Assembly (NCBI GenBank): GCA_021796215.1
Contig: JAJYOK010000004.1
Span: forward strand, 30,217-94,216
Direction of reading: 5' to 3'
Length of the DNA stretch: 64,000 nt
Source of the DNA: Bacteroidota bacterium
GTDB lineage: Bacteria > Bacteroidota > Ignavibacteria > UBA10030 > UBA8401
In this document: positions 35,178-58,894 of the stretch, in pieces
Position numbering within the stretch: the first letter of the stretch is position 1
Layout: every line of letters begins with the position of its first letter
The notes under the pieces: model-generated
The model's database searches: none
Told to the model about the DNA's origin: nothing
What the model saw: the letters and a program-made list of their open reading frames with translations, nothing else
Translations under genes and position numbers: made by a program

Positions 35178-36608
35178 TTATCTCCAGCGGTCAACAAAGT
35201 ATTGCCACGCATAATCGTTTATTGAATACGGCACGATATCATAATACACCGGCTCAGTGTCATCGCTCTGCGGAACCATCCTGAACGGAATCGAGAGCGT
35301 TGTGCTGCCAGCTGTGTAATACCAGGTTTCGTACAGCGAAGCCTGACAGTCAACATATTCGGGCGGCCCGCACACAAGGTACACAATTCCCATCGGAGTT
35401 TTCCACCCTTCCATACATGCAGTGAACAATTCGTTTGCTTCGCGCAACCGCTGCTGAAACGCCTGCATTTTTTCTGCCCCGCCGTGCCGCTTCCAAAAAC
35501 CGGCGATGATGGCAATACGCATGCTGTCGGTATGTGCGTTCAACAGACTATCCGTCTCAGAGCCGCGCGCCAGAAACAACATTGCATCTGCAAGCTCGGC
35601 GGGGGAGACGACGTCAGGAAACGACGGCGTTGTTACAAGCACTTTCAGCGAATTAACGGTGCTATCTGATATCCCGTTTCGTGTGCGTACAATTGTCCGG
35701 ACAATTTCAACATACCGCTCCGGCGGTTTCGGATAAAATTGTATAAGCTGCAATGTTCCGTTTGATGAAGCGGTCATTACCGAGTCCTTCCGGTACAGGA
35801 CGGAATCGAATTTTTGTCCGCATGGACTGAATCGCCGAAAATATCCGAGCGCCGTCGGTGCGGAATAATAATAAGGACGCGGCGGTGTGACTTTTGAAAC
35901 TCTGTACGAAAATGAAACGCGCAGTGAATCACCGGCGTGCACATTGTATACTTCCTGAAAAATTCCAAGCGAATCTTTCAGCAATGCGAGCGACGTTGGA
36001 AATGCCGGACGCAGAGAAATACCGTTTTTACCCGCGGTCACATTTTCAAGAAGAAGAAAATCGCTGGCAGCAATACTTGTATCCCCAAGTTGAAAACCCT
36101 TTTGGGGAGGATTTTCAATGTGAAAATTACGCGCCGTGATTTTTTTACGTCTGCGGTACTGTAGTCCTGAACCGTTATCAACCGCACTCATTTCAAGCAT
36201 GTATGTCCCCGGCGGCGCCGGTACCGTCAACAAAAATGCATCAATTTGTGACGACACTGATTCGTCGTACGTGCGCGCAGTGACCGAGCGCTGAACATCT
36301 TTTGACTGCAAAATATCGCCGTTTTCACTCCGGAGAACAACGGAAAACGTGTACGACCCGAAAAATCCGTTGTCAGCCTTTTCGAAATGAAGATGCTGAT
36401 ACGGAATACTGTAATAGACATCTATGCGCCCGCTGTCGCCCGATGCAACATTCATGATATACGAAGAGAACGTCGGCAGCGCTAGTTTTTTGTACTGCCG
36501 CGACACAAAACAATCGGAGATCGTCTCCGAACTTAATGAGCAGCCGCTCATCATCACAACACTGAGAACGGCACACATCAGAACGAATTGCAGCCGTTGT
36601 TTCATCAA
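35178..36608 (-). CDS. Lipoprotein with C-terminal GWxTD-like domain
   Basis: 476 aa with a lipobox (VVMMSGCSL). The C-terminal GWKTPMGIVYLVCGPPEYV resembles the GWxTD domain signature (GWxTD...Y..YG.P). Confidence 0.4.
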   Translation of the reverse strand: MMKQRLQFVLMCAVLSVVMMSGCSLSSETISDCFVSRQYKKLALPTFSSYIMNVASGDSGRIDVYYSIPYQHLHFEKADNGFFGSYTFSVVLRSENGDILQSKDVQRSVTARTYDESVSSQIDAFLLTVPAPPGTYMLEMSAVDNGSGLQYRRRKKITARNFHIENPPQKGFQLGDTSIAASDFLLLENVTAGKNGISLRPAFPTSLALLKDSLGIFQEVYNVHAGDSLRVSFSYRVSKVTPPRPYYYSAPTALGYFRRFSPCGQKFDSVLYRKDSVMTASSNGTLQLIQFYPKPPERYVEIVRTIVRTRNGISDSTVNSLKVLVTTPSFPDVVSPAELADAMLFLARGSETDSLLNAHTDSMRIAIIAGFWKRHGGAEKMQAFQQRLREANELFTACMEGWKTPMGIVYLVCGPPEYVDCQASLYETWYYTAGSTTLSIPFRMVPQSDDTEPVYYDIVPYSINDYAWQYFVDRWR

Positions 36609-38890
36609 TGGCCTCCCACGCGTTCTTCAACAAAACTGGACTCATCAATCCGTTCATCAATTTCTTGTTGAACGAATGTAGACGCGGCATAATTTTTTGC
36701 CTGCCAGAACATTGCCTTTGCCTGTTCGAACTCCCCGCTTCGATAGTACACTTCGCCGGCGCGCATTGCCGCGGCAAAACGAAGCACCGGATCATCGAAC
36801 TCGTTAATACCGCCGCTCCATAACTCTGCCGCATCCTGAAAGCGTTTCGTTCCATTTAATTCTTCCGCCATTAAATAATTTGCAATGGTACGTGTCGAAT
36901 TTTGCTGCTGAAGCCGAACGAGCATCGCCCGGCACGTAGAATCGTCGAGCTGCCCGTAATAAAAAAATTGGAGCGATTGGTTCAACTGCGGTTGTTCAAC
37001 GATCAAGCGCCGCAGTGCCGCTGTTTCTGAATACTGACCGCTGATATTCATTGACTCAATTTTCCGGTAACATTGCAGGGCTTCAAGCGGCTGCCCCTCC
37101 AGCCACAACGCATCGCCAAGAAGAAGCACAATCGCCGGGTTGAACCGAAGCATTGAACTGCCGGATAATTGACTAAATATTTCAATAACATGCTGCGGTT
37201 TCCTCTCCGCCAGCAGTGACTGAAACAGTCCCCGCAATGCAAACGCCGTCGGCGCTTCGTTATACGACGCCGAAAATTCATTTTCCGCCAGCGAATAATT
37301 TTTCACTTTGATTGCCTGTACGGCACGCGCGTTCCGTTCAGCCGTTACGCGTGCACAGACTTTATGAAAAATTGAAGGCTGTACAAATAAGGTTTCTACG
37401 GTTTCGCGCGGAAGAGAAGAATCATCAACTGAGCGGAGAAATTCTTTCCATTCACTGATAAGCACATCTATCGGCTCGCCATAGACGGTAACAAACGCGC
37501 CGGTTGGAAAAACACGCTTGAAGCGTTCAATGCCGGAGCGATCAATGAGAAACCGGCAAAAGGAGCCGGCAACAACATACGCGAATGCGCTTTGCTGTGT
37601 CATAAATCCCGTCGTTGAAAAAAGATTTTCTACTTGTCCCAACTCATGTTCGCGCAGCAGCGCTGCGGCATATTCATCCAGTGAATGATTTCCCCACCGC
37701 CAGTCAACAGCCATCGCAAGCCCTTCATTCAGCCCCATTTTATCGCTTGCCTCAATCACCGGCAATCCGAAATTTGCCGCCAGCGCATGCACCAGTTCGT
37801 GGCGGAACGTATCATGAAACGATGCCAGCGACAAGTGAATTTCGCGCAGCCACGGTTTTGTAATTTCGGTGTTCGCCGTTCCGATGAGCCGGCGCTTCGT
37901 TTCATCATTCGGATAGAGATAGACGGAAATTTTCTCGCCGGGCGGCAATATTTCCTGAAGGCGCTCAGAAACAATGCGGAACGCAAATTCTGCTTCAGCT
38001 TTCAACACCCTGACCTGCGGCGGCGAAAGTTTTTCTGGCGGCAAGTAAAAAATAAAATGTTCACTGATCGCCATTCCGCCAAGTTTTTGTTGAATCTCTT
38101 TAGCGGAAAATTCAATGTTCAGCGTATCGCGCGTGAAATGTCCGATCGCGAGCAGCGCAGCGCAGACGAGCGCTGCAGGAATCAGCACGCTGTCCCCTTT
38201 AAGCAAATGAAACTGCCGCAGGTTTTCGCGCAGTGATTGGCGCTTTGAATATTGTCCGAGGCAAAAGAAAAAAACAACGAAGAGCAGTAATGCGGCAATG
38301 AGCGTGAACTCGCGGAACAACACCAGCGTCGAAATATTATTCAACGTTTCGTCATATGTGAATCCGGGAAAATATCCGAGAATGAAATTGTACGCGAACA
38401 ACTGCGGCTTGAAATACGTTATGAACACAATCTGCAAAAGAATAACGATCACTGCCAACGTGTAGATGATGCGCGCATGCCGAAAGAACAACCTGATCAC
38501 CATCGCCAGCGCAACGGAAAAAATCATTGTGCAAACGGGAAGAAGAAGATAATACTCTGCACCCTGCACGAACGAACAATTCTTCACTGCAATCGCATTC
38601 ACGCTCATTGCAAAAAGCGGAATAACTAAAAGAAGTGCATTGACTTTCAGATAATCGAACGTAACGAACAGCCACGTGCGGCGCGTAAGTGGTTTTGTGA
38701 GATGGTCATTCAAAAAACTGATGGTGAGCATTCCGCTGATGAACGCAGTGGGAATCGTCATCAGTGCAGAAAATTCAAAGCCGAGATAATTAAAGAGCGG
38801 GACTTGCGTGAGCAAACCAGCGATGAGAAAATAAATCATCGCCATATTTTGGACAACGTGAAGACGGATGTAAGAGCGAAGAACGCGCAT
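36605..38890 (-). CDS. Polytopic membrane protein with HExxH...NEG peptidase-MA-like domain and C-terminal TPR region
   Basis: 761 aa with ~8 N-terminal TM helices. The central region carries HELVHALAANFG...MGLNEGLAMAV (gluzincin-like HExxH + E). C-terminal helical repeats follow. The start overlaps the GWxTD gene by 4 nt. Confidence 0.5.
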   Translation of the reverse strand: MRVLRSYIRLHVVQNMAMIYFLIAGLLTQVPLFNYLGFEFSALMTIPTAFISGMLTISFLNDHLTKPLTRRTWLFVTFDYLKVNALLLVIPLFAMSVNAIAVKNCSFVQGAEYYLLLPVCTMIFSVALAMVIRLFFRHARIIYTLAVIVILLQIVFITYFKPQLFAYNFILGYFPGFTYDETLNNISTLVLFREFTLIAALLLFVVFFFCLGQYSKRQSLRENLRQFHLLKGDSVLIPAALVCAALLAIGHFTRDTLNIEFSAKEIQQKLGGMAISEHFIFYLPPEKLSPPQVRVLKAEAEFAFRIVSERLQEILPPGEKISVYLYPNDETKRRLIGTANTEITKPWLREIHLSLASFHDTFRHELVHALAANFGLPVIEASDKMGLNEGLAMAVDWRWGNHSLDEYAAALLREHELGQVENLFSTTGFMTQQSAFAYVVAGSFCRFLIDRSGIERFKRVFPTGAFVTVYGEPIDVLISEWKEFLRSVDDSSLPRETVETLFVQPSIFHKVCARVTAERNARAVQAIKVKNYSLAENEFSASYNEAPTAFALRGLFQSLLAERKPQHVIEIFSQLSGSSMLRFNPAIVLLLGDALWLEGQPLEALQCYRKIESMNISGQYSETAALRRLIVEQPQLNQSLQFFYYGQLDDSTCRAMLVRLQQQNSTRTIANYLMAEELNGTKRFQDAAELWSGGINEFDDPVLRFAAAMRAGEVYYRSGEFEQAKAMFWQAKNYAASTFVQQEIDERIDESSFVEERVGGH

Positions 38891-43991: not shown

Positions 43992-45323
43992 GTGCGGGAA
44001 ATCGCATCGCAATTGCACGATATATTCCTTCTCCGTATCTTGTCAAGAAAAAATCTCATGCCGGCGCATCGCCCACAGAAACTCACCACCGCTGTACAAA
44101 GAGCTCTTCGGACAGTATTTTCCATCTTCCGCTCTCAAGAGCACCCGCTCACCGGAGTGTACAAAATTCAGGTTGTCTCGCTGCAGGAAGAACTCGAACA
44201 CCCGGAGTCGCTTCCGAAAGAACTGCGCTACGCTCTTCTCCAAAATCCGTCGTTGAAAGAACGTATTGAATCTGTTTTAAACAATGGAAAAACAATCGGC
44301 GTACGCACTGTGCAGAAAACTCCGGAACGTGTGCTCAGCGCCATCAACAGCATTTCACAATTCAGCCAGCACAAAACAATTGTCACATGGCTTCCCGCAC
44401 TATTGACGCGGCAGGAATCTCCACGAATGCTTCCTTCTGACCACGAGCGCGCAGCAGCCCACAATGTCGATCTGAATCGTGAAGTTACACACATCCTGGA
44501 CCACCGGCTGGAATTCAAAAAGTTCATGATCATTGATGACAGCCATGTGGGGTTGACATCTGAAGATAGATCGCTTATTGACGCTCTCAACGAACTCATC
44601 ACACCTATTGTACTGAAACATGTTGTCAGCCGGATGACATTTGACAACGCCGATACGCGAACTGCGGTAGCTCAATCCATTCTCAAAGCGCTGCTCATTA
44701 TCGGGCCGATCACGCAGGTGTTGGAACAATACACCCATGGCTTCGGAAAAATTTTTGCTGCATCAATGGATGATATTCTTTCTGAAGTTGCAGAATTGTT
44801 TGCGCTGCACGGCTCCGGTTTCCGGTGGAAGCAGCTCGTTCAACGCATGAAGATTCTCGTTCCTATTTTCGCGCTTGCTTCGTACGGCGCTTATCATGTT
44901 GATACGCTGATTGATGAACAGCATTTCGCGCTTGCCGGCATTTTGTTCGGCGCATCGGCAGTTGCACTTTCGCTTACCACCGCTTTGCAAAGTATTCGTC
45001 TATATAAACAATGCATAGATGCGTTGATTCATGATGAAAAATTACCGCCGGCACCGCCAGTGCGGCGCTGGCTTTTGGCAATCCGTCAGGATTTTACCAA
45101 TCCTGCGCGATTAGGATTATTTGTCGGCGCTTTGATTTCCCCGATTGCGGCAATGATTGTCTTTGTCGGACTTCCCTTTTTCGTTCACAACGGATGGGTG
45201 CTCGCACTTCTTGGCACAGCAGAAACACTGACAGCCGGTTTGTTTGTTGTTATCGCGCGCCGCTTGAATGCGTTACGATTTCAATTAACCATTTCACGTC
45301 TGCTGAACGGACACGGGCGTTAA
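43992..45323 (+). CDS. Hypothetical protein with C-terminal transmembrane helices
   Basis: 443 aa with no recognisable motif. The C-terminal ~150 aa are hydrophobic (3-4 TM). The start is uncertain (GTG at 43992 overlaps the terminator; ATG at 44058 is possible). Confidence 0.4.
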   Translation: MREIASQLHDIFLLRILSRKNLMPAHRPQKLTTAVQRALRTVFSIFRSQEHPLTGVYKIQVVSLQEELEHPESLPKELRYALLQNPSLKERIESVLNNGKTIGVRTVQKTPERVLSAINSISQFSQHKTIVTWLPALLTRQESPRMLPSDHERAAAHNVDLNREVTHILDHRLEFKKFMIIDDSHVGLTSEDRSLIDALNELITPIVLKHVVSRMTFDNADTRTAVAQSILKALLIIGPITQVLEQYTHGFGKIFAASMDDILSEVAELFALHGSGFRWKQLVQRMKILVPIFALASYGAYHVDTLIDEQHFALAGILFGASAVALSLTTALQSIRLYKQCIDALIHDEKLPPAPPVRRWLLAIRQDFTNPARLGLFVGALISPIAAMIVFVGLPFFVHNGWVLALLGTAETLTAGLFVVIARRLNALRFQLTISRLLNGHGR

Positions 45324-46873: not shown

Positions 46874-46908
46874 GAAAAAAAAAGCCCCGATTACGGGGCT
46901 TTTTTTAT
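46874..46908. terminator. Bidirectional rho-independent terminator between convergent genes
   Basis: AAAAAAAAAGCCCCG-atta-CGGGGCTTTTTTTATT: a 9-bp GC-rich stem flanked by an A-run and a T-run. Confidence 0.65.
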
Positions 46909-46926: not shown

Positions 46927-49900
46927 TTAGAAATCTTCCCCTAACGAAATATAATATTTCGGAATCGAGAATCCGGCAACGTTGTACGACCATGCAACAT
47001 CAAATCTCAGCGGCAGACCAAAAAGAATAATGCGCATGCCGAATCCTGTTCCCACCAGCAAATCTTTTGTAACAGTGCCGCCAGAAGAACTTTTCGCGAG
47101 ACCCTGCCACGTCCCCGTGTTCGTCCAGGCTGATCCGACATCGAGAAATGCTACGCCGGTAATATTCTGAAATGCGAGCGGCACGCCGCCGGTTACTAAA
47201 TACTGAATCAACGGAAAGCGCAATTCGTAATTCATCAATGCGAACTTCGTTCCGTTCTGTGCATTGTAATTGAATCCGCGCAGCGGCAATGCCGGAGTGA
47301 GAAATGCGTAATCGGCAACACTTTGAATCGGAATCGTCCCGTTTTCAAATTCACGATTGAGCCAGCCGTCAGTCCCGCCGATGAAAAAATGCTGCGGGTT
47401 CGCTCCCATGCTCAAACCGCCGGACCATCGCGCAACGAAATCATAATCACGCCAAAACGAGAGGTACGTTCGGTAATCAAGAGTGAATGTTTGGAAATTG
47501 AGCGAGTTCGCTCCGAGAGACGGGCTGAACATTCCTGAAATATTGTACCGCTTGCCGTTGTTCGGCGCCGTATAACCCCACAGCGTATTGTCATGAATGT
47601 AACTGACTTGCGGAATGATTAACGAGCGCTGTTGTGCCGGCTCAAAATTGAAATCGAGATTTTCCATCGAAAGGTTGAGCCACATCAACTCAAAATCCAT
47701 CCGGTTAAATCTGTCAAACGGATACGACGCTGAACCGCCGATGCCCCACGTCTGAAAACGGTACAGCGCGGTGCTCATTACCTGCGGGTTATAATCGTTC
47801 ATGTACAAGAAGCGCGCGCTGTGAAATCCCTGGATACCGTAATCAATACGCTTCGGTAAATAGTAATAGGCAAAAAGATAATCACTGTTTTTGAGATCGA
47901 GCATCAGGTTCGTTAAAAAATAAATCTGGTGGTCGCCAAGCATATCGCTGAACGCCATCATCGTCGTACCTTCCACTCCGTAGAATGTGCTGTAGCCGGC
48001 ATTACCGTAAACAATATCGGGAGTGAAATCGAGCTTGTACTTATTCACCTTGTAATTCCCGTTCTCATCCACATTGTCTGTGAGAGAAAATTTCTTGTCA
48101 TCAAGCGATCCAAACTGATCGAGCTTTTTCTCTTTTTCTTTTTTCGCTTCATCGGCAAACACATAGGTGCCGAAATCAATGTGAACATTTTTGCCGTACA
48201 CTCCGCTCGTATCGGCCGCTGAACGGTTTGCGACAGCAATGGATGATGTGTCTTTCTTCGCAGCCGTGGAATCCGCAGCAGCAACGGACGGTGATTCCTC
48301 TGCGATTAGATTTTTCATGAACTCTGTCGGCTCGAGCGATGCAACGGCGAGCTTCTTTTCGAACGGCATCTTCATCACAAAAATATCGAACCCCGCATGG
48401 TCCAGCGCTGAAAACGTAAGCTTATTTCCATCTGCAGAAACTGAAAGCTGGTACACACCCGCGATGGAATTTGTGATCGGCCAGTCGTCGCCGGTGACTA
48501 GATTGCGTTCATAAATATTATTGATGCCGTTGCGGTCGGAAATGTAAAGCATTTTTTTACCGTCGGGCGAAAGCGCAGGCGATGTTTCGTCGCTGTGTGG
48601 GTAATCAGTAATGCGCTGAATCTCTTTTGTCTCTGCATTGATCGCATACAGGTCAAGCTGTGAATAATCGTAATGCTCCATTCTGAAATCCGGTGGACGG
48701 CTTTGCAGTGAGAGATGGTCGCCGCGATCCGAAGAGAAGTAAATTGTCTTTCCGTCGGGAGACCAAACCGGATCAGCATCGGAGAAAACGTCGTCAGTTA
48801 AATTCGTCAATGTTTTTGTCGTCATATCATAAACATAGACATCGGAATTCTGATCCTTGTCGCCGATAAACGCCAGCTTGTCGCCTTGATGCGACCAATT
48901 GACGGAGAAAATTCCGTCCAATCCGAATTCCAGTTTCTCCTTATCACCGCTTGCAACATCAACGATAAAAATCGCATCCTGATCGCCGCTTTTTACTGCC
49001 AACGCAATTTTCTTTCCGTCCGGCGACCATGAAATTCCCGGCGTCAGCAGATGAAGCTCTTCAAAATTTTTCGTCTGCTGCCCATCAACAATTTTTGTCA
49101 CTTTATTATCAATGGTGGACATGATGTACACATCGAAATACTCGTCACGATCGGAAATGAATGCAATTTTGTCGCCTTGAGGAGAAATGGCGGGGCTAGT
49201 ATTATAAAAATTGCCGTCTTTATAATGATTGGTTAACCGTGTTGCGAAATCGGCAGGATCGTCCCGCTTCGCGATGTCAGGCCAGTACGTTACTTTCAAC
49301 TCTTTCTGCCATCGCTGGTTCAATTCTTCAATGCTCAGGCCGAGTGTGCTCTTGAATCCTTGTTCCACGCTTCGCGTCCCTTTAATGCGATTCAGGATCT
49401 CACCGATTTTTTGTTCACCATATTTGTTCGCGATATAATACCACACCGATTGGCCGCCGCGATATGCAAAATAACCGTTCAAATAATCAATAGGAACGAG
49501 GTACGTATGAATCGTCGCGTCGCGCATGAACATATCGGAATTGGTGTCCCACTTCAGCGATTCGTATTCTGCCAATCCTTCGTTGAACCACATCGGCAGT
49601 TGTAAACGGATATTGTTTGAAATCATGGATTGAATAGAGCCGCCGTAAAACATATCGTTCACCACCGCGTGAACAAGCTCGTGATGAATGACATGTCGAA
49701 ATTGACGAAAGCTTCCTTCAAATGGAATCACCATGCGATTCTTGAACAACTCCGTAACGCCGCCGATTCCTTCCTCAAGATATTCCGAAACAACATTGGT
49801 CTGTTGAAAATCGTTATGAGAATTGTACACCATAATCGAAATCCGGTTGTTGATCTGGTACCGGAAATCATTGCTAATCATCGTGTATGCCGACTCCGCC

Positions 49901-50091
49901 GCCGCCGCAGTGAAATTTGCAAGATACTCGCCCCCCTGGCTGAAGTAAATATCGAAATGATTGGTTTGAATATAGTACCAATGGAAATTTTTGTATTGGA
50001 CTTTATTCTTTCCGAACTCTGTATCCTGTGACATTGCCGTCACAGCGCAAAGCGCAAGCAGCGCCGCAATACACCACTGACGAATGTTCAT
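46927..50091 (-). CDS. Outer-membrane Omp85-family barrel protein with N-terminal HExxH...NEG metallopeptidase-like domain and PD40 (TolB-like) beta-propeller repeats
   Basis: The start is taken at MNIRQWCIAALLALCAVTAMSQ (signal peptide, ATG at 50091). The track ORF extends to 50151. HHELVHAVV...WFNEGLAEY is a gluzincin-like motif. Repeated SPDGKKIA/SPDGKTIYF/SPDGKKMLY match the PD40 motif. The C-terminus ...GTGFGMRIILFGLPLRFDVAWSY...ISLGEDF matches the Omp85/bacterial-surface-antigen barrel, with a terminal Phe. Confidence 0.55.
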   Translation of the reverse strand: MNIRQWCIAALLALCAVTAMSQDTEFGKNKVQYKNFHWYYIQTNHFDIYFSQGGEYLANFTAAAAESAYTMISNDFRYQINNRISIMVYNSHNDFQQTNVVSEYLEEGIGGVTELFKNRMVIPFEGSFRQFRHVIHHELVHAVVNDMFYGGSIQSMISNNIRLQLPMWFNEGLAEYESLKWDTNSDMFMRDATIHTYLVPIDYLNGYFAYRGGQSVWYYIANKYGEQKIGEILNRIKGTRSVEQGFKSTLGLSIEELNQRWQKELKVTYWPDIAKRDDPADFATRLTNHYKDGNFYNTSPAISPQGDKIAFISDRDEYFDVYIMSTIDNKVTKIVDGQQTKNFEELHLLTPGISWSPDGKKIALAVKSGDQDAIFIVDVASGDKEKLEFGLDGIFSVNWSHQGDKLAFIGDKDQNSDVYVYDMTTKTLTNLTDDVFSDADPVWSPDGKTIYFSSDRGDHLSLQSRPPDFRMEHYDYSQLDLYAINAETKEIQRITDYPHSDETSPALSPDGKKMLYISDRNGINNIYERNLVTGDDWPITNSIAGVYQLSVSADGNKLTFSALDHAGFDIFVMKMPFEKKLAVASLEPTEFMKNLIAEESPSVAAADSTAAKKDTSSIAVANRSAADTSGVYGKNVHIDFGTYVFADEAKKEKEKKLDQFGSLDDKKFSLTDNVDENGNYKVNKYKLDFTPDIVYGNAGYSTFYGVEGTTMMAFSDMLGDHQIYFLTNLMLDLKNSDYLFAYYYLPKRIDYGIQGFHSARFLYMNDYNPQVMSTALYRFQTWGIGGSASYPFDRFNRMDFELMWLNLSMENLDFNFEPAQQRSLIIPQVSYIHDNTLWGYTAPNNGKRYNISGMFSPSLGANSLNFQTFTLDYRTYLSFWRDYDFVARWSGGLSMGANPQHFFIGGTDGWLNREFENGTIPIQSVADYAFLTPALPLRGFNYNAQNGTKFALMNYELRFPLIQYLVTGGVPLAFQNITGVAFLDVGSAWTNTGTWQGLAKSSSGGTVTKDLLVGTGFGMRIILFGLPLRFDVAWSYNVAGFSIPKYYISLGEDF

Positions 50092-50174
50092 ACGTCCTTC
50101 CCTCTTGACACACAGAATGTAATCATCACCTGTTACCTTGTTACACTTCAACGCACAGACAATTTAAAAAGTGC

Positions 50175-52379
50175 CTATGCGTGTTTATGGTTTTTTTTTC
50201 TTTTTTTCGTTGTTTTTAGTGCAGTTTTCATTTTTTTTGATACTGCTTCGGACACATAGGCGAAATCAATTTCACGGTTTTCGACATCTACGCGAGCAAC
50301 CTTTACTCTGATAGCATCACCCAGCCGAAATGTGCGCCCGTGGCGCTGCCCGACAAGCGAATACTGTTTCTCATTGTGGACGTAATAATCGTCGTCAATA
50401 TTGCGAACGTGAAGCATTCCTTCCACGAGCAAATCATTGATTTCAATAAAGATTCCAAAATGAGTGACGCCGGAAATAATTCCATCGAACTCGTCGCCCA
50501 TGTGCTGCTTCATGTATTCCGCCTGCATGACCTTGATCGAAGCACGCTCGGCTTCCATTGCAACGCGCTCGCGCTCCGACGACCAACGGCACATTTCCGG
50601 CAGGCGCGATGTATAATGTTTGCGCTGTGCTTGTGTCATGCCGTGCGCATATTCTTCAAGCAATCTGTGCACGATCAGATCGGGATAGCGACGGATCGGC
50701 GAAGTGAAATGCGTGTAGTAGTCGAATCCCAAACCGTAATGCCCGATGTTCTTTTCAGAATATACCGCTTTTGCCATCGAACGCAAAGCAACTTCGGTAA
50801 TCACATTTTCGTCCGGCGTTCCCTTCACATCGTTCAGCAATTTCTGCAAAGCTTTAGACGAAACAGACGATGTCACGTTTAATGTGTAGCCGAATTTCTG
50901 CACAAACAACGAAAGTTCGCGCAATTTCTCCGTGTCAGGCGCATCGTGAATACGATACACAAACGGAGAAATACCTGCTCCGTTTTTCGGCAGCCCGATA
51001 TGTTTCGCCACGGTTTGATTTGCCATCAGCATACACTCTTCCACAAGCTGGTGGCTTTTCAACCGCTCTTTGATAAGCACTTCGACCGGTTTCCCGGATT
51101 TATCATAACGGAATTTCGCTTCTCGCGTATCGAAGTCAACACTGCCGCTTTTCATTCTTTTTTCACGAAGCGTTGCAGCAAGAGTCCACAACTTAGTAAG
51201 CTCGCGGACAAAATCTCCTTCTCCGCTGTCAAGAATTTTTTCCACCTCTTCATATGTAAACCGCCGTTTTGAATTGATCACACTTTTTACGATCGAATAA
51301 GCGGCGACTTTTCCTTTCACAGAAATATCCATGAAACAGGTGTACGCAAACCGGTCAACGTGCGGATTGAGGCTGCACAAATTGTTCGACAGCTTTTCCG
51401 GCAGCATCGGCACAACTTGGTTCGCCAGATACACACTCGTGCCGCGCTTGTATGCTTCTGCATCCAGCGGCGTATTCTCTTTCACGTACGCACTGACATC
51501 AGCAATATGAACTCCGAGCCGAAATGTCTCGCTGTTGAGTTGTTCGATAGAAATTGCATCGTCAAAATCTTTTGCATCCACTGGATCAATCGTAAGACAT
51601 GTGAGCGATCGAAGGTCAGTACGGCGCGCAATTTCTTCTTCGGGAAGTGTGTCGGGAATGCCCCGCACGTATTCCTCAACATCACGCGGAAAACTTGTCG
51701 GAAGATGGAATGCCTTGATCACTGATTTGATCTCTGCGCTCACTTCGCCGGCACGTCCGATAATCTCGACGATTGATCCTTCCGGATTCAGAAGGTCAGA
51801 TTCCCACGATTCGAATTTCACAACCACTTTGTCGCCGGGCTGCGCCCCGTTGATTTTATCCTGCGGAATGTAAATATCGCGCGGCACCGTATTGTCATCG
51901 GGAATAACGAAAAAGAAGCTTTTGCTTTGTTCCAGCGTGCCGACAATTTCGGAATTCGCCCGCTGCAAGACCGCGATAATTTCTCCTTCGCGGCGTTCCT
52001 CATAATTTTTCTGATGCTTTTTGTGTGCGGCAAAGAGCGCGACCTCAACAGTATCGCCGTTCATCCCCGTGCTGAGAAATTTCGGCCCGATGTAAATTTC
52101 CTCTCGCGGATGTTCACCGACCTTAACAATGCCGTGTCCCTGTTTGTAGATTGTGAGTGTTCCTTCAATGCCGTGTGCCGGCGACCGGCGCGCATATCCT
52201 TTGCCGCGCGTATGCGACAATGTTTTCTCATCTACCATCCCGTGCAGGACGGTGCGCAGCTCTTGGAATGCTTCTTCATCACGGATACCGAGCCGCCGTG
52301 CCACTTGCCGGGACTTCAATGCTGTATTCGGGTGCTGATCAAAAAATTCAACCACACTGCGTTTAATTGTTTCGCTCAT
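50175..52379 (-). CDS. rnr: Ribonuclease R
   Basis: 734 aa with N-terminal HTH/cold-shock-like regions, an RNB catalytic domain, a C-terminal S1 domain and a basic tail (KKRKKNHKHA). Confidence 0.9.
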   Translation of the reverse strand: MSETIKRSVVEFFDQHPNTALKSRQVARRLGIRDEEAFQELRTVLHGMVDEKTLSHTRGKGYARRSPAHGIEGTLTIYKQGHGIVKVGEHPREEIYIGPKFLSTGMNGDTVEVALFAAHKKHQKNYEERREGEIIAVLQRANSEIVGTLEQSKSFFFVIPDDNTVPRDIYIPQDKINGAQPGDKVVVKFESWESDLLNPEGSIVEIIGRAGEVSAEIKSVIKAFHLPTSFPRDVEEYVRGIPDTLPEEEIARRTDLRSLTCLTIDPVDAKDFDDAISIEQLNSETFRLGVHIADVSAYVKENTPLDAEAYKRGTSVYLANQVVPMLPEKLSNNLCSLNPHVDRFAYTCFMDISVKGKVAAYSIVKSVINSKRRFTYEEVEKILDSGEGDFVRELTKLWTLAATLREKRMKSGSVDFDTREAKFRYDKSGKPVEVLIKERLKSHQLVEECMLMANQTVAKHIGLPKNGAGISPFVYRIHDAPDTEKLRELSLFVQKFGYTLNVTSSVSSKALQKLLNDVKGTPDENVITEVALRSMAKAVYSEKNIGHYGLGFDYYTHFTSPIRRYPDLIVHRLLEEYAHGMTQAQRKHYTSRLPEMCRWSSERERVAMEAERASIKVMQAEYMKQHMGDEFDGIISGVTHFGIFIEINDLLVEGMLHVRNIDDDYYVHNEKQYSLVGQRHGRTFRLGDAIRVKVARVDVENREIDFAYVSEAVSKKMKTALKTTKKRKKNHKHA

Positions 52380-52395
52380 AAATATCTTTCACTGG

Positions 52396-55300
52396 TTAAA
52401 AAACAATTCGGTAGTACAAGCGAATGCCGCTTGTCGGACGGCGCGGGTCGCTCGGTTCTACCGATTCAACTTTTCGGTTCACTTCAAGCATGAGATTGCG
52501 AAGATTCTGGTCGCCGGTGACCGAACTCAGCGGCAATTGCACGCTGACATTTGCATTATTGATGTCATTGAATACTCTTCCTCCAAACGACCAGTACGCA
52601 TCAGCAACCTCGCCGCTGAGCCGCAAATCTGTCGCTGCACCAACTGAACGGACTTCGGCGCTCGAAACGAACGAGATATTGTTTGAGCGCATAAAATCCA
52701 TCAACACGCCGGACAACATTGTATTGGCAAAACCGGAAACCACGGAATACCCGATCGCACCGCCAACACCAAGATTGTTTGCGATGCCTTGCTTATCGTT
52801 CGACGTCAAATCGTCGCGGAATTTGCCCGGCGTTCCTGCCGATGAAGTGAGAAGAAATGCAATTGCATCGGCTTCCACGTCGCCCGTCCGTTCCGTTTCG
52901 ATATTGTTATTATCAATCGTCGAAAGCCCGATTTTGACTTTCGGCTCATAGCGCGTTCCGGAAATTGTCAGCGAGACGACTACTTTTTCCGTCGTTGAAT
53001 CGTTCACCAAATGTGTTCCGGTATATTGTGCACTGATGTCCAGCTTCGGATTATCCGGCTTCCCGGTAAATATCAAACTTCCGCTTGCATCAAACTGCTT
53101 ATAGAATTTATAATTTGACCGGTCGGAAACATTGATTGTTCCCGTTAGGCGGACATCGCCTCCTTCTTTGCTCAGGTTCAGCTTACCATTCAAATCGGCG
53201 AACAATTCTTCGTTTGTTGCGGCATTAAAAATCATTGTAATCTGTACAACGCCTTGTGTTTGAATGGTGAGATCATATCCGAGTCCGTCAAGAAATGAAG
53301 CTTCGGCAATATTGTGTTCCGCATTTTTTTGCCGGGCAAACGCTTGCAGACTTTGTTGAAGCAAAGTATCAACATGCCGCTTCGAAGTATCGTCAACAAC
53401 CGTCACCTTGACAAATCGTGAAGACGCTGACGTTAATGATTGCCGTGTCGGCGGGAACACAAGCTGCGCTTGTTTCACATAAATCGTTCCGGTCACATTT
53501 GATCGTGCATAATTACCTTCGAACCTGATGCCGTCATCACCGGTTGCAGCAACAAGATCGCCGTACACAGATTGCGTTGCAGTGCGTGATGCTTTCTGCA
53601 GCACCATCAATTCTCCTTTTGCAAGAAGATGATAGACCGATGGCACAAATCCATGCAGCATGACGGAACCATCGAGTGTGACTTTGCCATTGGGCCAATC
53701 GTTGCTTGTATTTGCAATTGTGAACTGCGAAAAAGAAATTGTGCTGTCGCGAAATTGAATGGTGCCGTTGGTTTTGTATACGATATTATTCGACATCATT
53801 CTGAACGCTCCGTCGTGAAGCTCGGCCGAGCCGCCGAAGATAGGCGAGGCAAGTGAGCCGTTGCAAAAAACGGTTCCTGTCATTTTACCGTTCACATCTT
53901 CAACACCCGGAAGGAAAGGACTCAGAATGCTCAGTTGAAAATCATTTGCGGCGAAGCTAAGATTTAGTCCCGGCAAATCAAAGCGATGATCTGTCGCAGT
54001 GAACGAAAGATCAACCGGCATCATTCCGGTAAACAGCAGCTGGCTTTGGCTTCCATTTTGCTGTTCGCGATACAGCGCAACTTGAACGGCTGCTTGTTTA
54101 TCGTGATAGAAAACACCGGCATCAATTGTTCCAAAATAAGATTCGCGAAAGGTGACATCACCGGCAACCATGTGTGCACGGATAACTGGCTCCTGCGTTG
54201 TTCCGGAAATTGAGCATTCAGCCTGCACTGTACCTCCAAACGCCAGCGCATTTGATTGAAAATTCTGTGAACTGCTGCCATAGTACATATCGCTTGGCGA
54301 AAAATTCTGAAGATTCATAAACCCTTTGATGTCTCCCTTAAAGCCGAGTTCACCGCCAAGACTCAGTTGTTCATCCTGATGAACGAACATGACAGAATCA
54401 AGCTGAATACCGCTCGGTGTAATTTTCGCTGTCACCGGCACCGTGTTATTCAACTCGTATCCTCGATAGCGAAGCGAACAATGATCGAAACGAAGATGAT
54501 ACGCCGATGGCTGCACTTCAATGCGTCCATCCACACCGACGCCGAGCGTTGTATCAAGCGAGCCTGAAATAGAATATCGCCCGATGCGATTGCGGTACAC
54601 GTAATCTACTGACGCCTTTTTGAATTGTGTCTCGTTGATAAAAATACTACCAGCAGAAGCTTTGACTGTAACAGAAGGACCATCCCGGAGCGAAAGCAAA
54701 CTGTCCGGACGTAAATTGCTCAAACGATATGCCACACTGCCGTTTTCCACCAGCACAAATCCCTGCGAAAGAGGATAACGCCCCGAGCGAACTGAAACAG
54801 TACCTTCAGTGAAAAGAGTATCCACCGTTCCTTCAAGCACACCTTCCACTGAACCGGCCATCGTGAATCCATTTTCACCAAACAAATAGGCAACCGGTTC
54901 AATGTTTTTCACCTGAAGTAAATAATGAACACGCTGAACGGGTTGAACAGATTCATAACGCATAGCGGATAAATTTTTCTGCAATGTATCTATAGAAAGA
55001 TGTGCTGCCGCCGTTGAATCGAAAATTGCGCGTTGGACAAGAAATGTTTTCGAAAAACCATGCTCTTGCACCGCAATGATATCCGCGATGTTCTTGTACG
55101 AAAACAAGCCGTTGATAGAAAGGTCCGCGACAGGAGAGTGCACCTCAATCAACTTTTGATGAAGTGAATCCTGCGCAATTTTTACTGTCGCCCGCCCTCC
55201 TTCAAACATACGCGTTCCAAAACGCGAGCGGTCAAATTGCAGCCACACATCGGCGTTCGTTTCTTCGAGGGATAGATTTTTCCCTTGTATGCCGAACGTT

Positions 55301-56925
55301 AATGAACAATCGGAACTGAATTGTTCTTCTTTTAGAAAAGGTGAAAAATCAAAATGAGTCAGACCGCCGCTGAATGTGTAGCGTGTTCCATCTGCCGCAT
55401 GGAAATCCATCATTCCGTTGAAAGACGCCGATCCGTGTGTTGATGTAAAAGCTGCTTCTGTCCGGATAACTTTCTTCAATGCCGAAATAGTCATTGCCGC
55501 ATGATGTACTTCAACGGAATGAATGAGCGAGGAATCCACCTGTACCGACGCTGTCGAGTTCAAATCTTCGATAGATGTTCCTTCGCCGTGAATTGATGCC
55601 GCAAAATTCATTCGCGAATTAAGAAAAGCCTCGGGAAAAAACCGGGCAAGATCAATAGCATGTCCGTTGGCAGTTGCTTCATATTTCATCACGGCGCCGG
55701 TAAGATTCATTGAGGCATCCGCAGTAAAGACACCTCCGGCAGTATTTGTCTGTACCGTCGCCTGAAAATCGAGAGGCTTTCCAATGTAATGAAAATCGAG
55801 CTTCACCTCGCCGAGATCCGGGAACGCAGGAATATGAAAGAACGGCAACAGGTCGGGAACATCCTGCGGTTGAACCACCGACCCTTTCGATTCAATATTC
55901 ATTGTAAGGTCTGCCGGACGATGAAGGTTCGATAACGTGCCGGAAAGAATTATTGTTGAGCGGCGCGTGGTCGCATCCAATTCTTTGATCTGCAGGTTGC
56001 CGAACTCGCCGTCAATGTGCGCGTTGAGATTAACGGAGCCGCGCAAAAAATTGAGCGATGGAAGAAATCGCTGAAGGTCTTCGGCGGCAACAGTGCTTGA
56101 AGTAACTTTGACAGACACCGGAACCGTACGCAGCGCGGCAAGATCGGGAATCTTAAAAACATCCACCGCGTGCATTGTGGCTGAGACTTCAACGTGCGAT
56201 TGCGGCGTGAGGATAACAAGATTTGTCACTTCAGCGCCTTGCCGGAAATGATGAATATGAGCCGCAAGGTGATTCAGTTTCAATCCGTTGTCCGGCGATT
56301 CAAACGAGATATTATTAATTGTAATATCCTGTTCCCGTTCTGAAATAACGCCCTTCAAATCAATCGCAATACGTTGTACATCAAGATCCGAGAAATCAAC
56401 TGTGCGGCGTGCAATGGAATCGGGCAGCCCTCGGTTTCCTTCTGCTGTTGAATCTATCATCCGAAAACGAGCGTCGTTAATTTTCAAATTTTTCACAGAA
56501 ACGACCCACGGTGACGGTGTGGTATCCGGCACAGATTTACTCTTTGCAAGATGGTCAACATTCCAGCTTCCGTCGGGGTATCGAATCAGCGTTACGGAAA
56601 GATAATTCAGCGAAACCCCGCCGAGAGAAATTCGCTTATTCCACGCGGCAAGCGGATCGTACCGAACAACAATCTTTCCGCTTTCAACAAAAGGATGATC
56701 ATCAACATACATGATGAGCGTATCCATTGAAAATCCCGTCACGAGATTCCCATGAATCTGACCAAGATACACACGTGCGTTGAGATTATTCTGCAGAAGA
56801 GTATAGAGTGTTGAACGGAGAGTTTCCTTAAATGTTCTGGTCTGGGAAAAGAGCGCTACAACAACAAGCAGTGTTACGATAGATGCGCCGATGTACAGCA
56901 ATATTTTTGAAACTTTTCGCGTCAT
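52396..56925 (-). CDS. tamB: Translocation and assembly module protein TamB (AsmA-like, DUF490 C-terminus)
   Basis: 1509 aa with a single N-terminal TM anchor (ILLYIGASIVTLLVVVALF). The body is long and beta-rich. The C-terminus ...LMLEVNRKVESVEPSD..SGIRLYYRIVF is typical of the TamB/DUF490 family. Confidence 0.7.
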   Translation of the reverse strand: MTRKVSKILLYIGASIVTLLVVVALFSQTRTFKETLRSTLYTLLQNNLNARVYLGQIHGNLVTGFSMDTLIMYVDDHPFVESGKIVVRYDPLAAWNKRISLGGVSLNYLSVTLIRYPDGSWNVDHLAKSKSVPDTTPSPWVVSVKNLKINDARFRMIDSTAEGNRGLPDSIARRTVDFSDLDVQRIAIDLKGVISEREQDITINNISFESPDNGLKLNHLAAHIHHFRQGAEVTNLVILTPQSHVEVSATMHAVDVFKIPDLAALRTVPVSVKVTSSTVAAEDLQRFLPSLNFLRGSVNLNAHIDGEFGNLQIKELDATTRRSTIILSGTLSNLHRPADLTMNIESKGSVVQPQDVPDLLPFFHIPAFPDLGEVKLDFHYIGKPLDFQATVQTNTAGGVFTADASMNLTGAVMKYEATANGHAIDLARFFPEAFLNSRMNFAASIHGEGTSIEDLNSTASVQVDSSLIHSVEVHHAAMTISALKKVIRTEAAFTSTHGSASFNGMMDFHAADGTRYTFSGGLTHFDFSPFLKEEQFSSDCSLTFGIQGKNLSLEETNADVWLQFDRSRFGTRMFEGGRATVKIAQDSLHQKLIEVHSPVADLSINGLFSYKNIADIIAVQEHGFSKTFLVQRAIFDSTAAAHLSIDTLQKNLSAMRYESVQPVQRVHYLLQVKNIEPVAYLFGENGFTMAGSVEGVLEGTVDTLFTEGTVSVRSGRYPLSQGFVLVENGSVAYRLSNLRPDSLLSLRDGPSVTVKASAGSIFINETQFKKASVDYVYRNRIGRYSISGSLDTTLGVGVDGRIEVQPSAYHLRFDHCSLRYRGYELNNTVPVTAKITPSGIQLDSVMFVHQDEQLSLGGELGFKGDIKGFMNLQNFSPSDMYYGSSSQNFQSNALAFGGTVQAECSISGTTQEPVIRAHMVAGDVTFRESYFGTIDAGVFYHDKQAAVQVALYREQQNGSQSQLLFTGMMPVDLSFTATDHRFDLPGLNLSFAANDFQLSILSPFLPGVEDVNGKMTGTVFCNGSLASPIFGGSAELHDGAFRMMSNNIVYKTNGTIQFRDSTISFSQFTIANTSNDWPNGKVTLDGSVMLHGFVPSVYHLLAKGELMVLQKASRTATQSVYGDLVAATGDDGIRFEGNYARSNVTGTIYVKQAQLVFPPTRQSLTSASSRFVKVTVVDDTSKRHVDTLLQQSLQAFARQKNAEHNIAEASFLDGLGYDLTIQTQGVVQITMIFNAATNEELFADLNGKLNLSKEGGDVRLTGTINVSDRSNYKFYKQFDASGSLIFTGKPDNPKLDISAQYTGTHLVNDSTTEKVVVSLTISGTRYEPKVKIGLSTIDNNNIETERTGDVEADAIAFLLTSSAGTPGKFRDDLTSNDKQGIANNLGVGGAIGYSVVSGFANTMLSGVLMDFMRSNNISFVSSAEVRSVGAATDLRLSGEVADAYWSFGGRVFNDINNANVSVQLPLSSVTGDQNLRNLMLEVNRKVESVEPSDPRRPTSGIRLYYRIVF

Positions 56926-57417
56926 TCATGCCTTCAATGACTCTGCGTACCGCGCTTTGATCACATCTATGATATTCGTTGTCGAACGATTTGGAAGAAA
57001 CGGTATTGTCAACACAGTACCTCCGGCGGCTTCGACCACATCTTTTCCCACAACATTGTTCACATTCCAATCAGCGCCCTTCACCAGCACGTCCGGCACG
57101 ATTGCAGAAATGATTTCGAACGGCGTCTCTTGTCCGAAGATGCAGACTGCATCCACCGGCACGAGCTGCGAAACAAGATATGCGCGGTCATCTTCCGGAA
57201 CGATGGGGCGAAGCGGCCCTTTAATCCGTCGCACCGATTCATCGCTGTTGATGCCGACAATTAACACGTCGCCAAGACGTTTTGCGGCGGCAAGATATTC
57301 AACGTGTCCGCGATGAAGAATATCAAACACGCCGTTCGTAAAAACTACTTTTTTCTTTTCATCTTTCCATCTTTTGCGCGCACGCAGGAGATCGGAAAGA
57401 ATGTACGTCTTATCCAT
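56926..57417 (-). CDS. hldC: D-glycero-beta-D-manno-heptose 1-phosphate adenylyltransferase (HldE domain II as a stand-alone protein)
   Basis: 163 aa. VVFTNGVFDILHRGHVEYL carries the cytidylyltransferase HxGH motif, and the size is RfaE2-like. Confidence 0.8.
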   Translation of the reverse strand: MDKTYILSDLLRARKRWKDEKKKVVFTNGVFDILHRGHVEYLAAAKRLGDVLIVGINSDESVRRIKGPLRPIVPEDDRAYLVSQLVPVDAVCIFGQETPFEIISAIVPDVLVKGADWNVNNVVGKDVVEAAGGTVLTIPFLPNRSTTNIIDVIKARYAESLKA

Positions 57418-57558
57418 AACTTATAAAATTCTAAATCCGAACATCGGATCTCAAACAAACCAAAAATTCTAATTTACAAAACGTTTCTTTTTGAACCTTT
57501 GGTATTTGTGCTTTGGCATTGTTTCGAAATTAGAAATTAGCGCTCCGTGTTTTTTTTC

Positions 57559-58554
57559 TTACGGATCAACAAGAATTGCCGTCTTCAGCGCTAAAGGCTC
57601 AATCGGCACGATACCGACTTCACCACAGACAACGCCCGCGGCATGATTGGCAAGCTCGGCCGCTTCGCGAATCGAAACGCCGCTCGCCAATGCCATTGTC
57701 AATGTTGCAATAACGGTATCGCCCGCGCCGGAAACATCCGCTACTTTACGTGCCTGCGTCGGAATATGTGTTACACTGGAATCTGCTTCGATGAGTGTCA
57801 TCCCGTTTTCTCCGCGCGTCAGCAAAATGGTTTCCGCGTTCAGCCTCTGGAGAACTTCTTTTCCTGCCGCAACAAGTTCTTCCTCCGTTACAAGCTTTTT
57901 ACCCAGCGCCTCTTCCAGCTCTTTCTTGTTCGGCTTAAAGACAGAAACATTTTTATACTCGAAAAAATTGTTGAACTTCGGATCAACGGCAATAATCGTT
58001 CGATTCTCTTTCGCGCTTTTCACAACCCGATGAATCAGCGGCTTCGCCACAACGCCTTTATTGTAATCTTCAATAATGATACCGTCGAGCGAACCGGCAT
58101 GTTCCCTCACAATTGAAAATATCTTCTCACGAACGGCAGTTGAAATTTCTTTTTTTCGTTCGTGATCAATTCTCACCACATGCTGGCTATGCGCAATCAC
58201 CCGCGTTTTTACCGTTGTCGGGCGTGACTCATCCACCACCAAGCCTGCGGTTGAACAATGCTCATGCTCCAAAATTTCCCCGATACGCTTCCCGTTGAGA
58301 TCGTTGCCAATAACGCCGATCAATAACGGGCTGCCGCCAAGCGATTGTATATTATGTGCAACGTTCGCCGCACCGCCCAAGCGCTCGGTTTCACTCTCAA
58401 CTTCGACAACGGGAACGGGAGCTTCAGGAGAAATACGCCCGACGCTTCCCCACACGTATTTGTCGAGCATCAGGTCCCCAATTACGGCAATTCGTTTATT
58501 CTTAAAACGCTGAAGAATATCGTTGAGTTTCGATTCGGAGAAAGAAGATGACAC
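57559..58554 (-). CDS. hldA: D-glycero-beta-D-manno-heptose-7-phosphate kinase (HldE domain I, PfkB family)
   Basis: Ribokinase-like motifs are present: RIAVIGDLMLDKYVWG, GGAANVA and DVSGAGDTVIA (anion hole). I take the GTG start at 58554 (AGGA 7 nt upstream). The track ORF (start 58893) adds 113 non-homologous residues. Confidence 0.75.
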   Translation of the reverse strand: MSSSFSESKLNDILQRFKNKRIAVIGDLMLDKYVWGSVGRISPEAPVPVVEVESETERLGGAANVAHNIQSLGGSPLLIGVIGNDLNGKRIGEILEHEHCSTAGLVVDESRPTTVKTRVIAHSQHVVRIDHERKKEISTAVREKIFSIVREHAGSLDGIIIEDYNKGVVAKPLIHRVVKSAKENRTIIAVDPKFNNFFEYKNVSVFKPNKKELEEALGKKLVTEEELVAAGKEVLQRLNAETILLTRGENGMTLIEADSSVTHIPTQARKVADVSGAGDTVIATLTMALASGVSIREAAELANHAAGVVCGEVGIVPIEPLALKTAILVDP

Positions 58555-58894
58555 GCGGAATCCTGTAAAGTTCTGGCATTTATTGAAAATATAGGTATTT
58601 GCACTGCGACAAGCAAGAAATGCGGCGGTACACGTACCGCCGTTTGAACTCCGTCCATTTTTCTGTATCTTTTTCCATTCCGCCAAAAGATGAGGCTCCA
58701 AAGAAGCTCTATTCGAACACGGCGGATTTTCAACCTTGCTGAATCCGCCGCAGGCGGCTCCGGCAGGGGTAGGTGCGTTTGCACAGATGATGTCTGACGG
58801 CGCTTTCCTGCCATCTGACATCTCCGGTCGAAAAAACGTCAGACAGCACTGAACGCTGTCAGATGTTTTCAAAAACGGTACTGAAATCAACATT

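Follow-up and report, generated by a model that had tools for sequence, protein, structure and literature searches.

A WD40-Omp85 protein with an intact zinc peptidase site and no POTRA domain lies behind hldE-tamB-rnr in an Ignavibacteria genome

We analysed a stretch of 64,000 nucleotides, hereafter the window, from a Bacteroidota genome of the class Ignavibacteria (GenBank assembly GCA_021796215.1, contig JAJYOK010000004.1, positions 30,217 to 94,216), and we focus on one complete gene on its minus strand that lies behind the genes hldE, tamB and rnr and encodes a member of the Omp85 superfamily. Bacteria, mitochondria and chloroplasts rely on this superfamily for building their outer membranes, and nearly all knowledge of it comes from members that carry POTRA domains. 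The protein studied here, which we assign to the WD40-Omp85 subfamily, consists from N- to C-terminus of a signal peptide, a zinc peptidase, a six-bladed TolB-type PD40 propeller, a linker and a 16-strand Omp85 barrel (Table 1).

The maximal uninterrupted open reading frame (ORF) spans positions 46927-50151 on the minus strand, where the TTG at 50151 marks only the furthest possible start. The likely start is the ATG at 50091, because GGAAGG stands ahead of it, the exact 1054-residue product is found residue for residue in a public protein collection (P0241, from a 184-kb NCBI/ENA contig), and homologs, which are 1030-1090 residues long, align from that methionine. Residues are accordingly numbered from the Met encoded by ATG 50091, and all conservation counts given for this protein refer to columns of an alignment of 58 homologs with 60-90% identity.

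Table 1. Positions in the window of the WD40-Omp85 gene, of the parts of its product and of associated features.
Feature	Residues	Positions	Strand	Details
WD40-Omp85-type gene, complete	1-1054	46927-50091	minus	1054 codons plus stop
Signal peptide MNIRQWCIAALLALCAVTAMS	1-21	50029-50091	minus	predicted signal peptidase I cleavage before Gln22
Gluzincin (clan MA) zinc-metallopeptidase catalytic domain	38-290	49222-49980	minus	
HELVH zinc-binding/catalytic motif	137-141	49669-49683	minus	H137, E138 and H141 invariant (58/58)
NEGLAEY motif	170-176	49564-49584	minus	E171, G172, E175 and Y176 invariant in 58 homologs
Six-bladed TolB-type PD40 beta-propeller	296-574	48370-49206	minus	
Linker (about 130 residues)	575-708	47968-48369	minus	Ala/Lys/Ser/Asp-rich, mostly disordered
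16-strand Omp85 beta-barrel	709-1054	46930-47967	minus	ends ...YYISLGEDF
Loop-6 lid-lock motif P-L-R-G-F	936-940	47272-47286	minus	P936, R938 and G939 invariant
Strand-13 F-x-D-x-G motif	982-986	47134-47148	minus	F982, D984 and G986 invariant
Bidirectional terminator-like hairpin AAAAAAAGCCCCGATTACGGGGCTTTTTTT		46877-46906		13-pair stem, 6 GC pairs
Upstream block hldE-tamB-rnr		50175-58893	minus	context, not shown to be the same functional system
rnr		50175-52379	minus	Pfam RNB
tamB		52396-56925	minus	PF04357, 78.4 bits on the C-terminal 450 residues
hldE cytidylyltransferase		56926-57417	minus	Pfam CTP_transf_like
hldE kinase		57559-58893	minus	Pfam PfkB
761-residue protein		36605-38890	minus	multi-pass membrane N-terminus, Peptidase_MA_2-type domain, C-terminal TPRs

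A full-length structural model placed the peptidase at residues 38-290, the propeller at 296-574, a disordered stretch at 599-708 and the barrel strands at 709-1049. Searches of PDB sequences, with the single protein and with a profile of the 58 sequences, retrieved TolB and other propellers only and matched neither the barrel nor the peptidase, and fold comparison (Foldseek) was required to recognise these two. A first-pass annotation made from the sequence alone had described an Omp85 barrel whose periplasmic part is a metallopeptidase-like module plus a PD40 propeller instead of POTRA domains. We found that this description holds: an Omp85 barrel, a TolB-like propeller and a genuine metallopeptidase fold are all present, and a POTRA domain is absent. 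Modelling, the check proposed at that stage, recovered all three folds, and none of the outcomes listed there as speaking against the idea (a C-terminus that does not model as an Omp85 barrel, an HExxH region lacking a metalloprotease fold, a canonical tamA adjacent in related genomes) was found.

The N-terminus carries the signal peptide that had been noticed at first pass, namely MNIRQWCIAALLALCAVTAMS followed by Gln, of the signal peptidase I type. Gln22 is present in 57 of the 58 homologs, with a conserved (A/S)-Q junction at the predicted cleavage site, and Cys15 occurs in just 8 of them; on these counts the protein would be a substrate of signal peptidase I, most probably cleaved before Gln22, and we rejected a lipoprotein signal.

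The mature protein begins with the peptidase domain, which matches Pfam Peptidase_MA_2 with 57.8 bits against a cut-off of 32.4. The gluzincin-like HELVH...NEGLAEY motif, also seen at first pass, is confirmed by this match and by its invariant residues: HExxH and the downstream glutamate (H137, E138, H141, E171) that characterise clan MA(E) are conserved family-wide, and, from what is known of gluzincin families, E171, 29 residues past H141, is the predicted third zinc ligand. The domain has the thermolysin-like catalytic fold. An AlphaFold2 model of the peptidase alone (predicted local distance difference test, pLDDT, 81.8; predicted template modelling score, pTM, 0.81) superposes on gluzincin catalytic domains, and M30 enzymes and secreted collagenases (M9) are among its nearest folds. 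Because H137, E138, H141 and E171 are invariant in the 58 homologs, the peptidase is probably active. Identity to the gluzincins of M9 (collagenases), M30 (hyicolysin/lugdulysin) and M1 (aminopeptidase N, tricorn factor F3) is only 12-15%, the accessory domains of these families are absent from the protein, and its Pfam assignment is limited to the catch-all Peptidase_MA_2.

A further invariant segment, G-I-G-G-V-T-E-L-F-K-N-R at residues 108-119 (49735-49770, minus strand), lies about 23 residues before HExxH, in a loop modelled with low confidence. In where it lies and in its G-x-x-x-E pattern it recalls GAMEN, the motif with which M1 aminopeptidases anchor their substrates; should the analogy hold, the segment would hint at exopeptidase behaviour.

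The propeller is readily recognised by Pfam (PD40, E = 3e-29). The first-pass annotation was right about the presence of PD40 repeats, of which it had named at least three, and the count is six, with SP(D/Q)G(K/D)-type signatures at residues 303, 356, 400, 444, 508 and 552. In the model the propeller comprises six groups, each of three or four strands and together of 23, and it matches TolB both by sequence profile (1.5e-25, 7MX5) and by Foldseek (about 1e-13).

The linker that follows has pLDDT values below 50 over residues 599-669 and 689-708. Pfam found no POTRA domain in the full-length scan, and a scan of the linker segment alone was empty of POTRA at E <= 10, on which ground we rejected a hidden degenerate POTRA domain in the linker. 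Two strongly conserved islands stand out within it, at residues 632-645 (48157-48198, minus strand; VYGxNVRIDFxNYVF) and 675-708 (47968-48069, minus strand; NxDExGNYKVNKYKLNFSPDIVYGNAGYSTFYG), in which D639, F645, D675, Y685, F689, P691, D692, Y695 and G696 are invariant. The islands nevertheless have pLDDT below 50 in the model; a docking surface, a plug or additional strands might be built from them.

The C-terminal part was correctly read at first pass as an Omp85/surface-antigen domain. PF01103 was not detected in the full-length Pfam scan and surfaced once the barrel was scanned alone (isolated C-terminal 364 residues: 47.2 bits against a cut-off of 24, E = 2.9e-12). The AlphaFold2 model, evaluated with DSSP, has 16 strands over residues 709-1049, mostly at pLDDT 70-92, and Foldseek matched the barrel to TamA (4C00, E = 1.8e-10) and to dozens of BamA chains (about 1e-9 to 3e-10), with a target-normalised template modelling score (TMt) of up to 0.64. 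The sequence motifs of the superfamily are likewise in place. The loop-6 motif has been defined as (L/M)RG(W/Y), together with the strand-13 motif (PMC11358297). In the protein studied here, PF01103 and the 16-strand fold are accompanied by a lid-lock of the form (V/L/M)RG(F/Y/W) plus FxDxG, in which every one of the 58 homologs has Y or F at position 940 and the strand-13 F-x-D-x-G is the partner of the loop-6 arginine. The C-terminal residue is Phe in 48 of the 58 homologs; a terminal Phe is usual for outer-membrane barrels. The catalytic residues and both lid-lock motifs are invariant in the 58 homologs, which speaks for a peptidase that works and for a barrel that is natively of the Omp85 type.

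The protein is none of the well-studied proteins that its parts resemble. We compared it with the NCBIfam/TIGRFAM equivalog profiles of BamA, TamL, TamA and TolB and found all four scores under the cut-off, those for BamA, TamL and TamA far under it: 37.7 bits against 297 for BamA (TIGR03303; alignment over the barrel, E = 8.3e-10), 24.7 against 400 for TamL (NF052279), 13.5 against 625 for TamA (NF047950) and 160 against 343 for TolB (TIGR02800; only the propeller portion of the profile aligned). These scores, together with the lack of POTRA domains, led us to reject an identity with any of the four. BamA shares the barrel fold and the lid-lock motifs, whereas it carries POTRA1-5 and is essential and universal; the family described here is accessory and has paralogs. 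TamA and TamL share the 16-strand barrel, the lid-lock motifs and, in this window, the vicinity of tamB, whereas they carry periplasmic POTRA domains (one to three in TamA, more in TamL) where this protein has its protease and propeller, about 570 residues in all; TamL also has a lipoprotein signal with a conserved Cys, and no lipobox is present here. TolB has the same six-bladed PD40 propeller, whereas its N-terminal TolA-binding domain is missing from the protein, which combines the propeller with a protease and a barrel and is encoded outside a tol-pal operon.

The architecture has a precedent. Heinz and Lithgow recognised ten subfamilies within the Omp85/TpsB superfamily, among which one, 'WD40-Omp85' or 'WD40-like', was defined by an Omp85 barrel with an N-terminal TolB-like propeller (2014, Front Microbiol 5:370, PMC4104836). 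Their Table S2 gives its domain profiles as PF01103 with one to five PF07676, and their Table S3 lists about 95 members with fold matches to BamA/TamA barrels (4K3B/4C00), TolB (2W8B/2IVZ) and aminopeptidases (1Z5H, 4KXD, 4AR1, 3QNF), and no POTRA matches for the cluster (PMC4104836). The peptidase domain is not discussed in the main text of that paper (PMC4104836), and in a paper of 2024 the subfamily is characterised by its 'divergent WD40 and peptidase domains' (PMC11358297). The protein studied here has the same TolB-like propeller replacing POTRA and the same clan MA domain ahead of it: barrel, propeller, M1/M9-like N-terminal peptidase and absence of POTRA all agree, without any architectural difference. 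It is therefore a member of the WD40-Omp85 subfamily, an assignment that rests on identical architecture and fold assignments. The first-pass annotation was right to call the combination atypical against canonical BamA and TamA, and it is not new, having been catalogued in 2014 (PMC4104836). As a consequence the gene adds a member to a known, uncharacterised subfamily and represents no new kind of system; our literature search for functional work on WD40-Omp85 proteins returned the 2014 classification and passing citations only.

The family is abundant and spread over several phyla, and both its catalytic zinc site and its barrel motifs have stayed intact. A homology search scored 8,000 candidates, of which 7,268 matched the ortholog group, and the best 120 homologs are all full-length (938-1109 residues, 59-94% identity). 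Among GTDB species representatives at least 571 species, most of them Ignavibacteria and Kryptonia, show the strict pattern. The 80 GTDB loci kept come from Ignavibacteria, Kryptonia and metagenome-assembled genomes (MAGs) labelled 'Bacteroidota', the closest relatives being Ignavibacteria-type MAGs labelled Bacteroidota or Ignavibacteriales. Several of the Table S3 accessions are, we believe, from Ignavibacterium album and Melioribacter roseus, and others presumably from Rhodothermus, Salinibacter, Caldithrix, Chloroherpeton, myxobacteria, Geobacter, Gemmatimonas and Vibrio, with several paralogs per genome. Family members appear in databases as Tol biopolymer transport system component, biopolymer transporter Tol, PD40 domain-containing protein, DPP IV N-terminal domain-containing protein, BamA/TamA family outer membrane protein or peptidase MA family metallohydrolase. 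Each name mirrors one of the three domains; the Tol names, used because the propeller resembles TolB, are a misleading over-annotation. To this background the window adds a clean and well supported example of the architecture, evidence for a probably active peptidase and a position behind tamB that is conserved without being universal and that offers a testable hypothesis.

What might such a protein do? We favour, with about an even chance of being right, an envelope protease that is anchored in the outer membrane, faces the periplasm and serves quality control or peptide turnover near the membrane. The N-terminus would emerge from the barrel into the periplasm, as it does in BamA, TamA and FhaC; to our knowledge this is so for every Omp85 protein of known structure, so that the peptidase and propeller should hang beneath the outer membrane. 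The long tether would hold this unit in the periplasm, the propeller would capture or filter unfolded polypeptide segments, and the zinc site would then cleave the captured segments. Propellers are known in comparable roles, since that of TolB binds disordered peptides and those of tricorn and S9 peptidases gate their substrates. Under this hypothesis the protein would be neither an insertase of the BamA/TamA type nor a replacement for TamA. An Omp85-anchored protease, at the surface or in the periplasm, had been one of two suggestions made at first pass; we retain the periplasmic form as our preferred reading and the surface form as a rival.

Several points weigh against the periplasmic protease. 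The lid-lock motifs are invariant, as they are in functional insertases and translocases, and this would not be required of a passive anchor; it is the chief finding left unexplained if the barrel is a plain anchor. It is possible that the persistence of the gene order described below, at TamB identities of 23-30%, reflects some functional coupling to TamB. The pTM of the full-length model is 0.60, which makes the inter-domain geometry uncertain, and the side of the membrane on which the peptidase and propeller would lie is taken over from other Omp85 proteins. Finally, we know of no substrate.

The conserved lid-lock motifs are also what one would expect of a translocase, and the barrel might export its own passenger. 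In PlpD, the patatin-Omp85 protein of type Vd secretion, an enzyme domain likewise stands N-terminal to an Omp85 barrel; by analogy the barrel would translocate the peptidase and propeller to the surface with the linker spanning the pore, and the outcome would be a surface or released protease, for example one feeding on extracellular protein. Such a topology has been raised for other Omp85 proteins without POTRA domains by Heinz and Lithgow (PMC4104836). The linker of about 130 residues is flexible and long enough to be threaded through the barrel, and the secreted M9 and M30 enzymes among the closest peptidase folds would fit an extracellular role. We nonetheless consider self-export unlikely. 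PlpD has a patatin lipase passenger, known export and usually a POTRA domain, as do PlpD-type proteins in general (Table S2, PMC4104836), whereas Pfam scans of the present protein found neither patatin nor the POTRA domain between passenger and barrel that marks type Vd. Both globular passenger domains would furthermore need unfolding to cross the pore, and no autocleavage site is evident.

The same barrel hallmarks, all of which are retained, could instead belong to a specialised insertase that resembles a BamA-BamB fusion, as suggested by Heinz and Lithgow. In it the barrel would actively fold some of the outer-membrane proteins, with the propeller serving as a scaffold in the manner of BamB and the peptidase trimming or destroying substrates that stall. 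This we regard as distinctly unlikely: the propeller is six-bladed and TolB-like and not eight-bladed and BamB-like, about 130 disordered residues would not fix a scaffold at the lateral gate, no POTRA domain is available for substrate delivery, and no client proteins are known.

Whichever function applies, the gene has a recurrent genomic setting. It had been pointed out at first pass that it lies on the same strand as, and close to, rnr, tamB and the heptose genes, and this is indeed the case: reading upstream, the gaps are 83 nt between rnr and the WD40-Omp85 gene, 16 nt between tamB and rnr, 0 between the cytidylyltransferase gene and tamB and 141 nt between the two hldE genes. No terminator-like site was found between rnr and the WD40-Omp85 gene, and the strong hairpin AAAAAAAGCCCCGATTACGGGGCTTTTTTT, located between its stop codon and a convergent amino-acid permease gene, closes the transcription unit; for these reasons co-transcription of the gene with the upstream block is plausible. 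HldE is split into two genes in the window. The kinase ORF has 444 codons with PfkB starting at residue 133, its ortholog in a related locus (L001) was called with 304 residues, and its long N-terminal extension is probably not translated.

We surveyed 82 non-redundant loci, 63 of which had enough flanking sequence to be judged. Among the 82, rnr lies upstream in 48-53 and tamB in 43-46, and the same gene order as in the window was seen in 39-48 related loci. The hldE-tamB-rnr block is kept upstream of the WD40-Omp85 gene in 46 of the 63 informative loci and missing in 17, and it is inverted in 2. The losses are spread over several separate clades, and a neighbour-joining tree interleaves loci with and without tamB linkage, on which ground we rejected the idea that the loci lacking tamB are paralogs; they look like orthologs that lost synteny, which fits an ancestral order that was repeatedly broken. 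One homolog with 62% identity, on an 875-kb contig, has an entirely different neighbourhood. In two loci, L038 (868-9087) and L064 (938-9044), the whole block is inverted and divergent from the WD40-Omp85 gene (10001 onward) and still adjacent to it; the block behaves as a unit separate from that gene. The position behind hldE-tamB-rnr is, as far as we found, previously unreported as a conserved position in Ignavibacteria; it would be the ancestral gene order there and may allow co-transcription with envelope-biogenesis genes.

The upstream linkage is steadier across loci than the downstream neighbourhood. Other recurring neighbours, each in 14-19 loci, are a histidine kinase with a response regulator, TRAP transporter genes and the amino-acid permease gene, and they look like ordinary local synteny. 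The permease gene adjoins the WD40-Omp85 gene in its closest relatives, which would suit a self-exported protease living on extracellular protein, and its restriction to the nearest clade (14-15 loci) counts against reading it in that way. A 443-codon ORF without a Pfam match (43992-45323, plus strand) is conserved beside the permease and two-component genes in L001 (417 codons, also without a Pfam match).

The first-pass annotation had offered, as its other suggestion, a TamA substitute or partner for TamB, and the neighbourhood is where this idea has to be judged. On such a reading the protein would be the outer-membrane partner of TamB in Ignavibacteria, replacing or supplementing TamA or TamL, with the propeller and protease in place of POTRA domains. 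The neighbour is a true PF04357 TamB, on the same strand, at tight spacing and without a terminator between rnr and the WD40-Omp85 gene; the order is maintained in the 46 loci even where TamB identity drops to 23-30%, and the block adjoins the gene even when inverted. TamB moreover pairs with different Omp85 proteins across phyla, with BamA in Borrelia (PMC5582053) and with TamL in Bacteroidota (PMC12045153). We nevertheless consider the partnership very unlikely, the suggestion of a TamA substitute having had gene order as its sole basis. The unrelated gene rnr intervenes, the 17 losses fall in several separate clades, and the two inverted loci could not co-transcribe both genes. Bacteroidota tamL and tamB have been reported outside one operon, with TamL in every species examined (2025, PMC12045153), so that no conclusion on whether TamL is absent can be drawn from there being no tamL next to tamB. 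The TamL ('Lipo') list of Table S3 includes I7A4X8, and members of the WD40-Omp85 subfamily, several paralogs per genome, also occur in phyla that possess TamA (Table S3, PMC4104836). The barrel scores far under the TamA and TamL cut-offs, and there is no POTRA domain for an interface like that of TamA or TamL. I7A4X8 is presumably from Melioribacter (Ignavibacteria). The link to tamB is thus a conserved local gene order and not a demonstrated partnership. We would give only a slender chance to the bolder version of the idea, in which the Ignavibacteria WD40-Omp85 protein is the outer-membrane end of a machine like TAM, the module for translocation and assembly, with TamB docking on the POTRA-less barrel or the linker islands and the protease-propeller unit editing or clearing cargo; if true, it would be a new way to build a trans-envelope assembly module.

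No other Omp85 candidate was found within the 64-kb window. The peptidase module does recur, as had been proposed at first pass for the 761-residue protein listed in Table 1, and the reuse is borne out as distant homology at the profile level. That protein has HELVH at residue 364 and NEGLA about 25 residues further on, and H364, E365, H368 and E389 are invariant in its family. A profile comparison with hhalign aligned it to the peptidase of the WD40-Omp85 protein with a probability of 95.2% (E = 2.8e-8, 189 columns), and the alignment spans the whole domain (residues 276-492 against 43-272, about 22% identity). Pairwise BLAST between the two proteins was insignificant (E = 0.08), the peptidase profile of the WD40-Omp85 family gave 1.8 bits only on the 761-residue protein, and Pfam Peptidase_MA_2 reached 14.6 bits there, below threshold. 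The two peptidase domains are, as judged from these alignments, distant homologs and not a recent duplication. The family of the 761-residue protein gave 304 matches at E <= 1e-10, in Ignavibacteria-type MAGs only, and is annotated as 'hypothetical' or 'TPR' only. In joining a protease to TPRs it is conceptually reminiscent of E. coli BepA, which is, however, an enzyme of M48. The gene lies directly upstream of genes for a GWxTD-domain protein and a heptosyltransferase (35178-36608 and 34056-35168, minus strand).

Another combination of propeller and protease is encoded within the window at 21600-23975 (minus strand), where a 791-residue product joins an N-terminal WD40 propeller to a C-terminal caspase-like Peptidase_C14/CHAT domain; two genes away, at 18952-20892 (minus strand), lies a gene for an adenylate/guanylate cyclase with a CHASE2 sensor.

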